64,000 bases of DNA. It comes from Escherichia coli. Its GTDB lineage: Bacteria; Pseudomonadota; Gammaproteobacteria; Enterobacterales; Enterobacteriaceae. Of this stretch, positions 1,695 to 54,299 are shown piece after piece. How positions within the stretch are numbered: the first letter of the stretch is position 1; each line of letters begins with the position of its first letter. The translations under genes were made by a program, and so were the position numbers. The notes beneath the pieces are model-generated. The model ran no database searches. It saw only the letters and a list, made by a program, of their open reading frames with translations, and was not told where the DNA came from. The DNA is taken from NCBI RefSeq assembly GCF_003790525.1, contig NZ_CP033635.1; one strand, 5' to 3'.

Positions 1695-2657
1695 TTATTG
1701 CACGAAGCGCGAGGTCACGTACTGGCTGTAATCATTCGCCACGGCAGGGACTTTACCCTGATCTTTCAAAAACTGCGCGGTATCGATGATCGCTTTATTC
1801 ACCGGTCCGGTCAGTTCTGCCGTTTGTTGCTGCGGCGTCAGATAGGTATTCCCCTTCACCAGCCCCGGAACGTCACCTTCAGGCACGCCGCTTAACCGCG
1901 CCAGTTTGCTGATGTTTTCCGGCTGTTTCAGCCACGCGTCTGGGTTAGCAATGTACGGTTGCTGAGCATCGATGGCGCTTTTAGCGAACGCTTTCACGAC
2001 CTCAGGATGTTTCTCGGCAAAATCTTTGCGCACTACCCAGACATCCAGCGTCGGCGCACCCCACTGCCCGACCTGTTCAGAATCGGTCAGCACCTTGCCG
2101 TCTTTTTCCAGGGCGTTAACCGCCGGTGCCCAGACATAAGCACCATCAATGTCTCCCCGCTGCCATGCAGCGATAATCGCGGGCGGCTGCAGGTTCACAA
2201 TCTCCACTTGCCCGGGTTTAATACCCCAGTGTTTCAGCGCCGCCAGCAGGCTGTAGTGGGTGGTGGAGATAAACGGTACGGCGATGCGCTTGCCAATCAG
2301 ATCTTCCGGTTTGCTGATAGTTTTCTTTACCACCAGCGCTTCGGAGTTACCCAGTTTTGACGCCAGCAAGAAGACTTCAATCGGCACCTGTTGGCTGGTT
2401 GCAACCGCTAACGGGCTGGAACCGAGGTTGCCGATTTGCACGTCGCCTGAAGCCAGCGCCCGCACGATGCTGGCTCCGCTGTCAAACTTACGCCAGTCCA
2501 CGGTTGCTCCGCTTTCTTTAGCAAAGGTGTTGTCGGCCTGAGCCACTTTCGCCGGTTCGGCGGAGGTTTGATACGCCACGGTGACGTTCACCGCCTGCGC
2601 CTGAAAAGCGATGAATGCCAGTGCGGCAAGAAGTGTGTTACGCGATGAAATTGCCAT
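1695..2657 (-). CDS. tauA: taurine ABC transporter periplasmic binding protein
   Basis: ORF 1695-2714; likely start at internal ATG giving signal peptide [22 protein letters not shown] and 320 aa. Confidence 0.85.
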
Positions 2658-3272
2658 GATTGTCTGCTCCCCTGTCTTGTTATGGGAGCAGTATTCAGGA
2701 ATAAAAACATTCATTAAAAGAATTAGTCGTTATCGCACAGATGATTTTATTCTTAGCAAAAAAACGGCAAAGGAAAGATTAAATATGCAATTACTCCGTT
2801 CTAACAATTGGGAAAATTACTACACTTCATTTTAGTGATGCATAAACAACCACATTACGAGATTTATTACTTCATTATTTCTATCAATATCAATACATAT
2901 AATAAAACTATTATATTCGCATTGTATATATCACTGTATCATTCTCAATCACTCGCATATTACATTCACATAATGTATATAAACAATACTTGTTCACAGA
3001 ACATATTTTTTAAATGCAATTAATTGACAAACTAAATCACATCTAAATACAATGTATAAAACAAAATAACTATACATACCAAACATACAAACACTTAACA
3101 TATGAATTGCATAAAAACATTACCCAGTCGAACCTCCGGGTCTGAAAGCCCTTGCTTTTCAGTTATTAGCAACATTTAACATTTATAAATTAACATCTGG
3201 CTGCGCCAGAGATTACGTCTCTGAGTGCATCGTTGTGCTTGTAGTATAATAAATAAAATGGAGTGTCATTAA

Positions 3273-3944
3273 GTGGATAAGGTTTTAGATTCAGCCCTCC
3301 TTTCTTCGGCAAATAAAAGAAAGGGTATCCTTGCTATTGGCGCACATCCTGACGATATAGAATTAGGCTGTGGCGCATCGCTTGCTCGTCTTGCGCAAAA
3401 AGGAATTTATATCGCAGCCGTGGTGATGACTACCGGCAACTCTGGCACAGATGGAATAATCGATCGCCATGAAGAATCGCGCAACGCCCTAAAGATATTA
3501 GGGTGCCACCAAACTATTCATCTTAATTTTGCTGACACCCGCGCTCATTTACAGCTCAATGATATGATTTCCGCCCTGGAAGACATCATTAAAAATCAAA
3601 TTCCTTCTGATGTTGAAATCATGCGGGTATATACCATGCATGATGCTGACCGCCATCAGGATCATCTTGCAGTCTATCAAGCCTCAATGGTTGCCTGCCG
3701 AACTATTCCACAAATTCTCGGCTACGAAACCCCAAGTACCTGGCTTTCATTTATGCCTCAGGTTTTTGAATCCGTTAAAGAAGAATATTTCACAGTCAAA
3801 CTTGCTGCATTAAAAAAACATAAAAGCCAGGAACGACGCGATTATATGCGTCATGATCGCCTGCGTGCAGTTGCACAATTTCGCGGGCAACAGGTCAATA
3901 GCGATCTGGGTGAAGGCTTTGTAATTCATAAAATGATTCTTTGA
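3273..3944 (+). CDS. yaiS: LmbE/PIG-L family putative N-acetylglucosaminyl deacetylase
   Basis: GAHPDDIELG motif near N-terminus and HDADRHQDH metal-site-like motif; GGAG 9 nt upstream of GTG at 3273; start uncertain. Confidence 0.7.
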   Translation: MDKVLDSALLSSANKRKGILAIGAHPDDIELGCGASLARLAQKGIYIAAVVMTTGNSGTDGIIDRHEESRNALKILGCHQTIHLNFADTRAHLQLNDMISALEDIIKNQIPSDVEIMRVYTMHDADRHQDHLAVYQASMVACRTIPQILGYETPSTWLSFMPQVFESVKEEYFTVKLAALKKHKSQERRDYMRHDRLRAVAQFRGQQVNSDLGEGFVIHKMIL

Positions 3945-3953
3945 GCAAATTGC

Positions 3954-5150
3954 ATGAAAACCTGGATATTTATCTGTATGGCCGTAGCAATATTGCTATG
4001 GTTCCTGAGTACGTTAAGGCGTAAGCCCAGCCAAAAAAAAGGCTGTATTGACGCCATTATACCTGCTTATAACGAAGGCCCGTGTCTGGCGCAGTCACTG
4101 GATAATCTGCTGCGTAACCCTTATTTTTGCCGGGTAATTTGCGTTAACGACGGCTCCACGGACAATACCGAAGCGGTCATGGCGGAAGTCAAACGCAAAT
4201 GGGGCGACCGCTTTATTGCCGTCACGCAAAAAAATACCGGTAAAGGTGGTGCGCTGATGAATGGCCTCAATTACGCCACCTGCGACCAGGTTTTTTTAAG
4301 TGATGCCGACACCTATGTTCCGCCCGATCAAGACGGAATGGGCTATATGCTGGCAGAAATAGAGCGCGGTGCTGATGCCGTAGGCGGCATTCCCTCTACT
4401 GCGTTGAAAGGCGCGGGTCTGTTACCGCACATCCGCGCGACCGTAAAGTTGCCGATGATTGTTATGAAGCGCACGCTACAGCAGCTCCTGGGCGGCGCAC
4501 CGTTTATTATCAGCGGTGCCTGCGGGATGTTCCGTACTGATGTATTGCGTAAGTTCGGTTTCTCTGATCGTACTAAAGTCGAAGACCTTGATCTCACCTG
4601 GACATTGGTGGCAAACGGCTATCGTATTCGGCAGGCGAATCGCTGCATCGTATACCCACAGGAATGCAACAGCCCGCGTGAGGAATGGCGTCGCTGGCGG
4701 CGTTGGATTGTGGGCTACGCGGTCTGTATGCGCCTGCATAAAAGACTTTTATTTAGCCGCTTCGGTATCTTCAGTATATTTCCTATGCTGTTGGTTGTGC
4801 TTTATGGCGTTGGGATTTATCTCACTACCTGGTTTAATGAATTCATCACCACCGGGCCGCATAGTGTGGTGTTGGCAATGTTTCCGCTTATCTGGGTCGG
4901 CGTAGTTTGTGTTATTGGTGCTTTTAGCGCCTGGTTTCATCGTTGCTGGTTGTTGGTGCCTTTAGCGCCGCTTTCCGTTGTGTATGTATTATTAGCTTAT
5001 GCCATCTGGATTATTTATGGACTTATTGCCTTTTTTACTGGACGCGAACCTCAGCGCGACAAACCCACCCGCTATTCCGCACTGGTGGAAGCGTCAACCG
5101 CTTATTCCCAACCTTCTGTCACAGGAACTGAAAAACTTTCTGAAGCTTAA
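3954..5150 (+). CDS. yaiP: membrane-embedded family-2 glycosyltransferase (synthase-like)
   Basis: 398 aa; N-terminal TM helix, IPAYNE, NDGSTD, SDADT (DxD), EDLD, REEWRRW (QxxRW-like) motifs, then C-terminal TM helices. Confidence 0.8.
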   Translation: MKTWIFICMAVAILLWFLSTLRRKPSQKKGCIDAIIPAYNEGPCLAQSLDNLLRNPYFCRVICVNDGSTDNTEAVMAEVKRKWGDRFIAVTQKNTGKGGALMNGLNYATCDQVFLSDADTYVPPDQDGMGYMLAEIERGADAVGGIPSTALKGAGLLPHIRATVKLPMIVMKRTLQQLLGGAPFIISGACGMFRTDVLRKFGFSDRTKVEDLDLTWTLVANGYRIRQANRCIVYPQECNSPREEWRRWRRWIVGYAVCMRLHKRLLFSRFGIFSIFPMLLVVLYGVGIYLTTWFNEFITTGPHSVVLAMFPLIWVGVVCVIGAFSAWFHRCWLLVPLAPLSVVYVLLAYAIWIIYGLIAFFTGREPQRDKPTRYSALVEASTAYSQPSVTGTEKLSEA

Positions 5151-5709
5151 TGTTAAAGAGAAAAATATTCAGATTGCAGACCAGGTAATTATTGATGAAA
5201 CTGCAGGTGAAGTTGTTATCGGCGCGAATACCCATATTTGTCACGGTGCCGTTATTCAGGGTCCGGTAGTGATTGGCGCAAACTGCCTGATAGGTAATTA
5301 TGCGTTTATTCGTCCTGGCACAATAATCAGCAATGGCGTAAAAATTGGTTTCGCCACCGAAATTAAAAATGCGGTTATTGAAGCGGAAGCAACGATTGGT
5401 CCGCAATGTTTTATTGCCGACTCGGTAGTCGCAAACCAGGCATATTTGGGCGCACAAGTACGTACCAGTAATCATCGTCTGGATGAACAGCCCGTGTCTG
5501 TTCGAACTCCAGAGGGAATTATCGCTACCGGATGCGATAAATTAGGTTGTTATATCGGACAGCGTTCACGCCTTGGCGTACAAGTTATTATTTTGCCTGG
5601 GCGAATTATTTCCCCGAACACGCAACTTGGCCCGCGCGTGATTGTAGAACGTAATTTACCTACCGGAACTTATTCACTCCGACAAGAACTTATCCGTACA
5701 GGAGATTAA
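4999..5709 (+). CDS. yaiX: hexapeptide-repeat (left-handed beta-helix) acyltransferase; true start uncertain
   Basis: Maximal ORF overlaps yaiP by 150 nt; repeated [LIV]G-x4 hexapeptides (VIGANTHI, VIGANCLI, ISNGVKIG); first canonical start after the yaiP stop is GTG at 5269. Confidence 0.55.
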   Translation: MPSGLFMDLLPFLLDANLSATNPPAIPHWWKRQPLIPNLLSQELKNFLKLNVKEKNIQIADQVIIDETAGEVVIGANTHICHGAVIQGPVVIGANCLIGNYAFIRPGTIISNGVKIGFATEIKNAVIEAEATIGPQCFIADSVVANQAYLGAQVRTSNHRLDEQPVSVRTPEGIIATGCDKLGCYIGQRSRLGVQVIILPGRIISPNTQLGPRVIVERNLPTGTYSLRQELIRTGD

Positions 5710-5710
5710 A

Positions 5711-6484
5711 ATGATAAAACGGACGTTATTAGCGGCGGCCATTTTTAGCACATTGCCCGCTTATGCCGGGTTAACTTCCATTACCGCGGGCTACGATTTT
5801 ACCGATTATTCTGGCGATCATGGCAATCGTAATTTAGCGTATGCTGAACTGGTGGCGAAAGTTGAAAACGCAACGCTGCTTTTTAATCTTTCCCAGGGGC
5901 GTCGTGATTATGAAACTGAACATTTCAATGCCACTCGCGGTCAGGGTGCGGTCTGGTATAAATGGAATAACTGGCTGACAACCCGAACGGGTATTGCCTT
6001 TGCGGATAATACGCCGGTCTTTGCCCGCCAGGATTTTCGTCAGGATATTAACCTGGCACTGTTGCCAAAAACGCTTTTCACGACCGGTTATCGCTACACT
6101 AAATATTACGATGATGTCGAAGTCGATGCCTGGCAAGGCGGCGTATCCCTCTATACTGGCCCGGTGATCTCCAGCTACCGCTATACCCATTATGACTCCA
6201 GCGATGCAGGTGGTAGTTACAGCAATATGATTTCCGTGCGTCTGAATGACCCGCGCGGCACTGGTTATACGCAACTATGGCTAAGCCGCGGAACAGGCGC
6301 TTACACCTATGACTGGACGCCAGAAACACGCTACGGCAGCATGAAGAGCGTCAGTCTGCAACGTATTCAACCGCTGACTGAGCAACTTAATCTCGGGCTG
6401 ACGGCAGGTAAAGTGTGGTACGACACCCCAACCGATGATTATAACGGTCTGCAACTTGCAGCCCATCTGACCTGGAAATTCTGA
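5711..6484 (+). CDS. yaiO: outer-membrane beta-barrel protein
   Basis: Signal peptide MIKRTLLAAAIFSTLPAYA, alternating aromatic-rich strands, C-terminal TWKF; starts 2 nt after yaiX stop. Confidence 0.8.
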   Translation: MIKRTLLAAAIFSTLPAYAGLTSITAGYDFTDYSGDHGNRNLAYAELVAKVENATLLFNLSQGRRDYETEHFNATRGQGAVWYKWNNWLTTRTGIAFADNTPVFARQDFRQDINLALLPKTLFTTGYRYTKYYDDVEVDAWQGGVSLYTGPVISSYRYTHYDSSDAGGSYSNMISVRLNDPRGTGYTQLWLSRGTGAYTYDWTPETRYGSMKSVSLQRIQPLTEQLNLGLTAGKVWYDTPTDDYNGLQLAAHLTWKF

Positions 6485-6592
6485 TTGCTTCTGCCGCCCG
6501 CTATCCGGGGCGGCCTTCCCTGTCGATTAGGCCCCTCTTTCCTTTTTGTTATCCGACTACATTCACCGGATAAATTTTATTCTCCAGTGTTA

Positions 6593-6644
6593 TATACTAT
6601 AGGGGGGTATGCATTGACATATAGCATACCCCCCTATAGTATAT
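6593..6644 (+). promoter_or_regulatory. frmRAB promoter with large palindromic operator (FrmR/RcnR-type TACT-G6 ... C6-AGTA)
   Basis: TATACTATAGGGGGGTATGC-attgacatata-GCATACCCCCCTATAGTATA; 20-bp arms enclosing a TTGACA hexamer. Confidence 0.6.
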
Positions 6645-6668
6645 TGCGTGCAGATGATGAGGTGCGAA

Positions 6669-36659: not shown

Positions 36660-36706
36660 AGCCCATCCTTTGTTATCAACTTGTTATTTGCGTTGATAAA
36701 GACAAA

Positions 36707-36723
36707 GCAATGAGTGTGCCACA
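36707..36723 (-). promoter_or_regulatory. sigma-54 (-24/-12) promoter of prpBCDE
   Basis: minus strand reads TGTGGCACactcaTTGC (GG-N10-GC), about 50 bp upstream of prpB start. Confidence 0.7.
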
Positions 36724-53424: not shown

Positions 53425-54299
53425 GAACACACCTTTTATCTTTTATCGCTGTTCAGTATGAGTGATTACCTGTGGATTCCTGAGCACACATAAGGGGTAA
53501 CCATAAACATTAGCGATGCCATACGTATAACATCCCACATCACTATCAAGAAGATTATCTTTACCTCTGATGCTCGCTCAAAAACAGTTACGCTAAATAC
53601 CTTAAAAAGGTAATCACAAGTCAAACTCAGGAGATAATCACGCAAGAATGCAATATTAAAATTCAGATACTCATTTTTGGTAATAAAGAAGTAGTTGGAC
53701 TATTTCGATATTTATAATTTCCCACTACGTATTGACGCCCATTCATGAGTAAAGGCGCATTATATGAATTTAACAATCCAGATCAACTGAAAATACCTCA
53801 ACCTCATAAACACATAGCGTCAACATTCAATGACATAATGAGTAAAGATGTTGGTTATGCATACACGTCATTACTCTATGCCTATCCCTTAACAACCTGC
53901 TTTTTAAGACTGAATCCATTCAGCAATAGATAGCCAACATTATAACAATGACAATAAAAACAATATTTAAAACAATCAATAAAATATCAGACACAGACAA
54001 TTAAACCTTAAACAACAAACGGTTACATTGATTTTAGTTGATTTGCGCTACGCGTTCCCCATGAATAAAGCGTCATTTCAAATTAGCACCAATATTTACA
54101 TTAAATAAGACTAAGCTTATTGAACATTCACAACAGTCCAAACGTAGGTTTTGGGCTTCAATAGTTCTTTTCTTTTTTATTATCTGTTGCCTGGCAATCA
54201 TCAATCGATACTAAGGGCTTAACTGTACAGATATAACGTATCAAGAGGTAAGAGAAACCGCGCCATATGCAGACATGGCGCGGTTTTATGCAAAAACAA

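Follow-up and report, generated by a model that had tools for sequence, protein, structure and literature searches.

The tauA–yaiS intergenic spacer of Escherichia coli SMS-3-5: a catalogued H-NS-bound promoter island beside the tauABCD promoter

Promoter islands, as described by Shavkunov, Panyukov and Ozoline and exemplified by the appY island, are regions of 300 bp or more in which promoter-like sites are exceptionally dense; they are AT-rich, crowded with −10- and −35-like hexamers, associated with genes of predicted foreign origin and with H-NS, and give rise to little productive transcription. That H-NS alone is the cause of their silence is disputed in published work (PMC11661796). The paradigm of xenogeneic silencing by H-NS (Navarre, Lucchini, Oshima; bgl and proU; PMC8894471) describes foreign DNA of lower GC content that is occupied and repressed by this protein. 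The tauABCD promoter, in turn, is activated by Cbl and CysB, two regulators of the LysR type (van der Ploeg et al. 1996/1997). Features of each of these systems are found in the 615-bp spacer that is the subject of the present analysis.

The stretch of DNA analysed, a window of 64,000 nucleotides, matches the chromosome of E. coli SMS-3-5 (NC_010498.1) at 100%, in the orientation opposite to that of K-12. Positions 2658-3272 of this window form the intergenic spacer between the divergent genes tauA and yaiS; its K-12 counterpart (384617-385231) has the same length of 615 bp and differs at 5 of 615 positions (99.2% identity). The best overall explanation, in which we place considerable confidence, is that the native tauA promoter is joined here to the H-NS-silenced control DNA of an acquired yaiSPXO cassette, the spacer being composed of two unrelated control regions that meet at about position 2795. 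What supports this explanation is the base composition, the binding of H-NS, the repression that depends on hns, the mapped tauA transcription start site (TSS), the polymorphism of the cassette and promoter conservation; the choice of promoter for yaiS and an occlusion mechanism are the parts that we infer.

An earlier note, made from the DNA letters, had described the spacer as a very AT-rich divergent control region, and in this respect it was accurate to the base: the GC content is 0.301 as compared with 0.525 for the whole window, decreasing to 0.243 in an AT-rich core at about 2811-3119. Both the 300-bp and the 615-bp windows of lowest GC content in the 64 kb fall within the spacer, and only 0.09% of all 615-bp windows are equally AT-rich. 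The two short ORFs that had been named, of 74 and 71 codons, are present at 2611-2835 and 2808-3023, respectively. With regard to the repetitive character that had been claimed, the A/T tracts are real (29 of at least 4 nt, which lack helical phasing), while the short AT-rich repeats dissolve into two-copy matches of 10-14 nt, which is the chance level for low-complexity DNA. DNA that is AT-rich and contains many TpA steps is the sequence type favoured by xenogeneic silencers. In the core, TA steps occur at a frequency of 0.143 versus 0.043 in the window (3.3-fold), CA steps are also enriched, and AA/TT steps are depleted relative to composition.

The core is itself an entry in the promoter-island catalogue, where it is listed as 383994_309 (U00096.2 383994-384302, corresponding to positions 2811-3119; PMC3661553, Table 1 and supplement). 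According to the same source, each of the three ChIP studies considered found H-NS on this island (mark 'A'), and the adjoining genes are predicted to be foreign by three methods. The density of promoter-like sites that defines an island was found again in our own scan, with 9.7 σ70-like two-hexamer matches per kb in the core versus 0.72 per kb in the window (13-fold) and 38.8 versus 5.2 −10-like hexamers per kb (7.5-fold). As many two-hexamer matches are obtained when the core is shuffled with its mononucleotide composition preserved (12 observed, 13.5 ± 4.1 expected), and the crowding is therefore regarded as a consequence of composition. Compared with other promoter islands there is no difference in kind; what is added here is that base composition accounts for the crowding and that conservation across species is confined to a single promoter. 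In genomic SELEX, the spacer is marked as an H-NS target, and an RpoD-holoenzyme peak in the same spacer indicates binding of RNA polymerase in vitro (PMC3946193). The hexamer pairs reported there, TTGACA-18-TACAAT for yaiS and TTGAGA-16-TACAAT for tauA, are identical to those recovered by our promoter scan. On the tauA-direction strand, Cappable-seq detects no capped 5′ ends within the AT-rich core, neither in the wild type nor in Δhns.

All evidence on occupancy and expression stems from K-12 rather than from SMS-3-5, and the K-12 cassette differs in that yaiS is interrupted by a nonsense codon and yaiX by an IS2 element. A further list places H-NS-bound intervals at 383841-384686 (PMC8894471, Supplementary Data 3), the coordinate version of which is ambiguous: read as U00096.2, the intervals cover the whole spacer, and read as U00096.3, they cover yaiP-yaiS and no more than the final 70 bp of the spacer, the yaiS-proximal promoter being included under either reading. 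In the RNA-seq comparison of Δhns with the wild type (Forrest et al. 2022, PMC8894471), yaiS rises by 3.85 log2 units (5.9e-20), yaiP by 2.84 and yaiO by 1.06; tauA rises by 1.46 (2.8-fold), and the adjacent frmRAB genes are unchanged. These K-12 data support an approximately 14-fold repression of yaiSPXO by H-NS with a small effect on tauA, and part of the derepression of the cassette in Δhns could be indirect. The binding of H-NS and the xenogeneic silencing of yaiSPXO that had been proposed in the earlier note are thereby borne out by the ChIP and SELEX maps and the interval list, by the rise of the three transcripts, and by the cassette being polymorphic and found at another locus in a Citrobacter strain; an H-NS-free spacer with constitutive transcription of yaiS is contradicted by the published occupancy and Δhns data. 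In its foreign cassette of lower GC content, its occupancy by H-NS and the 14-fold increase in Δhns, the locus resembles the established cases of H-NS silencing, from which it departs in having neither predicted curvature nor a strong match to the high-affinity motif. For this motif, TCGATAAATT, no match with one mismatch or less was found in the spacer, which holds two two-mismatch hits only. To our knowledge, there is no described counter-silencer or inducing condition for yaiSPXO. All supported elements of an H-NS-bound, silenced spacer are already in the literature for the K-12 sequence and, in this sense, the finding is already known; the spacer is essentially ordinary, being one of the H-NS-bound promoter islands on record and keeping a cassette switched off.

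The yaiS-yaiP-yaiX-yaiO cassette (3273-6484, plus strand) is tightly packed, with gaps of 9, −23, and 1 nt, and according to Pfam it encodes a PIG-L deacetylase (yaiS), a GT2 glycosyltransferase (yaiP), a hexapeptide acyltransferase (yaiX), and the outer-membrane barrel YaiO, so that it looks like a surface-glycan modification module. The GC content over yaiS and the start of yaiP is 0.41-0.47. Among 5426 complete E. coli genomes, 4254 contain yaiSPXO together with the full spacer, and 451 E. coli genomes, including O157:H7, carry a cassette of response-regulator, MASE1-kinase, uhpC, and afuABC genes behind a 302-bp spacer. In strain A21 the site is empty, and the promoters of tauA and frmR are linked through a spacer of 305 bp; IS1-mediated deletions of the tauA-frmR interval are found in BL21, where the sequence upstream of tauA breaks off at −84, and in 19SZHZ886Rt, which retains 34 bp of it. 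As two-component, uhpC, and afu genes also flank tauA in Citrobacter and Enterobacter cloacae, this arrangement is taken to be ancestral and yaiSPXO to be its replacement. In E. fergusonii, yaiS lies beside tauA with a 676-bp spacer, the core of which has 18-24% GC. Citrobacter sp. FP75 possesses the same four-gene cassette at an unrelated locus, between treF/yhjA-like and fimbrial genes, with a YaiS that is 81% identical; the region upstream of that cassette cannot be aligned with the E. coli core and lacks any σ70-like match. No arrangement that lacks yaiS possesses the AT-rich core. A blastn comparison of the core with plasmids and phages returned no phage match and five 'plasmid' hits to megabase-sized E. 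coli records that are apparently chromosomal, and with no relative among phages or true plasmids, the core is not considered a mobile-element remnant. Horizontal acquisition of yaiSPXO is supported by these comparisons of gene content and sequence.

For an analysis of evolution within the spacer, eight versions were aligned: those of SMS-3-5, K-12, 550, and SCU-306, of two further E. coli-type contigs (L094 and L096), of a third lineage (L095), and of E. fergusonii. Invariant positions amount to 82% in the tauA untranslated region and −10 hexamer (2658-2695) and to 63% in the tauA upstream region (2696-2795), and they fall to 29% in the left core (2796-2994), where large indels occur. This left half of the core is AT-rich and hypervariable and includes the TTGAGA-16-TACAAT match in tauA direction (2948-2921), which is not conserved, its −10 being TGCAAT in the second E. 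coli allele. At the yaiS side of this segment, a conserved A/T block, ATATTTTTTAAATGCAATTAA (2995-3023, plus strand; 55% invariant versus 29% in the flanking core), resembles an UP element and may act as such. It lies directly upstream of a predicted σ70 promoter in yaiS direction, with the −35 hexamer TTGACA at 3024-3029, an 18-nt spacing, and the −10 hexamer TACAAT at 3048-3053, which agrees with the consensus at 11 of 12 positions and has a predicted TSS at about 3060. TTGACA-N18-TACAAT is exact in 8/8 spacers, including E. fergusonii and L095, and 24 of the 30 positions from −35 to −10 (3024-3053) are invariant (80%). The sequence downstream is 28% invariant (3076-3225) and the region next to yaiS 45% (3226-3272). 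That last region contains the alternative candidate, a TATAAT with a weak −35 (3245-3250, plus strand), 22 nt before the GTG start. The six aligned spacers of E. coli type share it without change, while it reads CATAAT in L095 and CATAAC in E. fergusonii. The yaiS start region itself (3260-3275) consists of the Shine-Dalgarno sequence GGAG (3260-3263) and the GTG codon (3273-3275), in agreement with the K-12 protein NP_414898.4. The distal promoter would, with middling confidence, be the likelier yaiSPXO promoter of the two, a preference that follows from its exact conservation in all eight spacers, the UP-like block, and the degenerate proximal −10 outside the E. coli type. In a RegulonDB-derived list yaiS is placed in a set of σ54 promoters (PMC3118216). 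The spacer, however, offers only three-mismatch hits to TGGCAC-N5-TTGCW and no good GG-N10-GC, and the sole match with a single mismatch, TGGCGCATCGCTTGCT (3371-3386), falls within the coding sequence of the present annotation.

The alternative that survives best would regard the core as functionless, decaying junction DNA which is bound by H-NS for its AT-richness only, with yaiS driven solely by the TATAAT at 3245. Several observations are in line with such a view: 29% of core positions are invariant and indels are many; the E. coli allele classes are 64-84% identical in the core (16-36% divergent), as opposed to 94-99% for most flanking genes (1-6% divergent) and 92% for yaiS of SCU-306 (8% divergent); IS1 insertions and IS1-mediated deletions affect the site; the promoter-like sites are no commoner than in shuffles; and a published RpoS-holoenzyme SELEX peak (383868 in U00096.2) maps to about 3245 of the window. 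Against this view stands an 80-bp block around TTGACA-N18-TACAAT, which is conserved as well as the tauA −10 and untranslated region over three deep lineages. In addition, it is the proximal −10 that is degenerate in E. fergusonii, and the AT-rich core is retained in this species (GC 0.18-0.24). We therefore consider the junction-DNA view unlikely and adhere to control DNA that belongs to the cassette.

If the distal promoter is used, a putative leader of about 213 nt (3061-3272, plus strand; 28% invariant) would precede yaiS, and this raises the question whether the conserved promoter gives rise to a small RNA or small protein that has escaped annotation, or to a leader that attenuates transcription. 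In 7/8 spacers the promoter is 219 nt away from the start codon. The first 80 nt of the putative leader are C-rich and G-poor (C/G 3.3, ranging from 2.0 to 7.3 across all 8 lineages), resembling a Rho-loading site; a hairpin is present at 3141-3162, and in E. fergusonii the corresponding position holds a hairpin resembling a terminator; and a 25-codon ORF starts at 3101. Against this stand the distance of 277 nt in L095, by which a fixed leader length of 219 nt was rejected as a constraint, and the lack of a T-tail behind the E. coli hairpin. The ORF was likewise dismissed, as no Shine-Dalgarno sequence precedes it and frameshifts disrupt it between alleles as well as in E. fergusonii. A permissive Rfam scan of 2300-3700 yielded nothing below E = 7, which means chance hits only; single-sequence folding of the leader (plus strand) and of 3100-3245 (minus strand) gave z = −1.3 each; alifold of five leaders returned a covariation term of +0.2 and hence no covariation support; and the K-12 annotation has no feature at this place. 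An independent transcript or regulatory leader of this kind is accordingly rated as quite improbable. Two other candidate structures were also rejected, namely a long-range pairing between CACTTAA (3093-3099) and TTAAGTG (3269-3275), which is poorly kept in E. fergusonii, and terminator-like hairpins on the minus strand (3210-3196 and 3141-3122), which are not conserved and do not coincide with a known transcript end.

At the opposite end of the spacer, the tauA promoter that had been assumed there is precisely located. From the ATG start codon (2657-2655, minus strand), a 26-nt untranslated region with the Shine-Dalgarno sequence GGAG (2670-2667) leads to the TSS, an A at 2683 (untranslated region 2658-2683, minus strand). 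This site (U00096.2 384430 = U00096.3 385206) was mapped in two independent Cappable-seq studies; it is present in the wild type, in Δhns, and in Δhns pRok, and is the single tauA-direction TSS in the spacer. The −10 hexamer AATACT (2690-2695, minus strand) is situated 7 nt upstream of the TSS within a 38-bp block common to all tauA upstream alleles, including those of the O157 and A21 types. Upstream of this hexamer, two homeologous versions exist in E. coli, one accompanying yaiSPXO and the other the ancestral afu cassette or the empty site. The adjoining region, 2696-2795, comprises an A7 tract and the inverted repeat GAATAAAAACAT / ATGATTTTATTC (2699-2710 / 2741-2752) and is 96-100% identical between two E. 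coli allele classes; it would be the region where the activators act. The conservation of the tauA side ends abruptly at about 2795, beyond which the two allele classes show 64% identity over the next 85 bp and a 9-bp indel, and it is for this reason that the junction is placed there. The Cbl footprint is reported to extend from −112 to −68 of tauA, which presumably corresponds to positions 2751-2795, where the conserved block ends, and CysB is said to bind multiple sites upstream of the gene. The TSS, the −10 hexamer, and the conserved upstream block fit the architecture described for the tauABCD promoter, yet the tauA-proximal portion of about 140 bp makes up less than a quarter of the spacer.

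It could be argued that the whole 615 bp represent an extended tauA regulatory region, with the AT-rich DNA serving control by sulfur starvation and not yaiS. The reported multiplicity of CysB sites, the 2.8-fold increase of tauA in Δhns, and a local curvature peak of 0.34 at about 2764, in the A7 tract, would be compatible with this. Yet the spacers of functional tauA operons in Citrobacter, Enterobacter, O157:H7, and A21, at 241-305 bp, do without the AT-rich core, allele conservation ceases at about 2795, and transcription towards tauA has its one mapped start 26 nt ahead of the ATG, which makes such an extension very unlikely.

One claim of the earlier note, that the spacer consists of intrinsically curved DNA, did not withstand the curvature prediction. 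Both a Bolshoy-Trifonov and an AA-wedge model were applied, next to a test for AA/TT periodicity; phased A6 tracts, used as a control, gave a curvature of 0.63 and unphased tracts 0.14. The mean predicted curvature of the spacer, 0.13 and 0.11 for the two models, respectively, equals the window means, 194-198 of 200 shuffles were at least as curved, and the power of AA/TT at 10-11 bp (z between −1 and 0.2) reveals no periodicity. As both wedge models and the periodicity test are negative, the claim is not supported. That a statically curved spacer nucleates H-NS by means of its shape is thus scarcely credible, for the A/T tracts and the one local peak near 2764 are outweighed by curvature at the window mean, far below that of the phased control, and by a core depleted of AA/TT and rich in TA steps that carries no 10-11-bp signal.

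Summarizing, the preferred reading of a native promoter joined to cassette-borne control DNA would translate into the following scenario. The tauA-proximal ~140 bp (2658-2795) would constitute the Cbl/CysB-dependent promoter by which tauABCD responds to sulfate starvation, and the remaining ~470 bp would belong to the acquired yaiSPXO cassette. The TpA-rich core of 24% GC is coated by H-NS, as the K-12 data show, and this would keep the cassette nearly silent in wild-type cells. By oligomerizing over the AT-rich DNA, H-NS may occlude or trap RNA polymerase at the promoter at 3024-3053 and at the weaker TATAAT at 3245. The other promoter-like hexamers would be a by-product of base composition which, as judged from the tauA-direction data, does not lead to detectable capped transcripts. 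More tentatively, and with distinctly less confidence than is attached to this reading as a whole, the island may be regarded as a self-silencing module travelling with yaiSPXO, in which 2995-3053 would be the true operon promoter, followed by the ~213-nt leader, with Rho-dependent attenuation through the C-rich 80 nt in addition to occlusion by H-NS, and in which the surrounding AT-rich DNA, quick to diverge, would persist solely as a landing pad for H-NS.

What is added to the known picture is of modest value and concerns the history of yaiSPXO as a replacement cassette, the tie between this cassette and a fast-evolving core, and the existence of one conserved σ70 promoter. The spacer shows, in textbook form, how H-NS silences an acquired cassette from its margin, and as such it serves as a positive control for the reading of a locus from its sequence. 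A named promoter island with exactly one evolutionarily constrained promoter bears on the debate over why such islands are silent. Finally, the tauA-frmR hotspot provides a natural series, from the ancestral cassette through the empty site and the replacement to the IS1 deletions, that is usable for studying the gain and decay of silencing DNA.

The interval between tauA and frmR (window 2658-6668) is a replacement hotspot, for which four states emerge from the comparison of loci L003/L087, L088, L004, L089, L092 and L093. It is occupied either by yaiSPXO, or by the arrangement RR-MASE1 HK-uhpC-afuABC, found in 451 genomes, O157:H7 among them, or it is an empty site, as in strain A21, or it carries IS1-mediated deletions, as in BL21 and 19SZHZ886Rt. 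The RR-MASE1 HK-uhpC-afuABC arrangement is likewise present in Citrobacter and Enterobacter and is, therefore, ancestral. The tauA promoter itself occurs in E. coli in two homeologous versions, which share about 55% identity in the sequence preceding the -10 hexamer; when these are compared (L003 6001-6140; L088 5001-5138), the homology break coincides exactly with the upstream edge of that hexamer (window 2695/2696). The K-12-type version is linked with yaiSPXO, also in E. fergusonii, while the non-K-12-type version is linked either with the afu cassette or with the empty site.

On the yaiS side of the spacer, the distal -10 element and the yaiS start codon are separated by exactly 219 nt (window 3054-3272) in every E. 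coli allele as well as in E. fergusonii, a distance kept despite an identity of approximately 50% and several indels in the alignment of eight tauA-yaiS spacers; in the third spacer lineage, L095, it amounts to 277 nt. A capped 5' end in tauA direction, reported at K-12 position 384653 (+), corresponds to window 3236 on the minus strand and diverges from the proximal yaiS TATAAT region. It is found only in a Δhns strain expressing Rok of B. subtilis, being absent from both the wild type and plain Δhns (PMC8894471).

The yaiS gene (window 3273-3944) is an intact PIG-L reading frame of 223 amino acids in SMS-3-5; in K-12, Gln186 is replaced by a stop codon, resulting in a product of 185 amino acids. 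The PGAP label of partial pseudogene for yaiS in SMS-3-5, strain 550 and SCU-306 looks like an annotation artefact. Antisense across the yaiS 3' end lies a 39-codon reading frame (window 3810-3929, minus strand) annotated in K-12 as ykiC, which is a validated small protein (PMC6001520) and may fall in a region coverable by H-NS. RegulonDB-derived lists of σ54 promoters include yaiS (PMC3118216). This listing may be explained by TGGCGCATCGCTTGCT, a -24/-12 match with one mismatch on the plus strand inside the yaiS coding sequence (window 3371-3386), which is probably fortuitous because it overlaps a conserved protein motif. Upstream of prpB, at a distance of 47-62 nt, the minus strand carries a perfect σ54 consensus, TGGCACACTCATTGCT (window 36706-36721), which represents the σ54/PrpR-dependent promoter expected for prpBCDE.

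Within the window, the stretch that ranks second in AT content (53574-54200; GC 0.30-0.32) lies at the betT 3' end and adjoins the betT-pdeL spacer, for which the SELEX tables likewise give an HNS mark (PMC3946193).

Further genomes carry an IS1 insertion inside the tauA-yaiS spacer. In BL21 (BL21-AI, L004 6001-6110), an IS1-associated deletion leaves tauA only 110 bp of upstream sequence and ends at about -84, a position that would lie within the Cbl footprint. In 19SZHZ886Rt (L089 5001-5034), only 34 bp remain upstream of tauA; the -10 element is truncated and all sequence farther upstream is gone. Taurine utilisation may be impaired in both strains.
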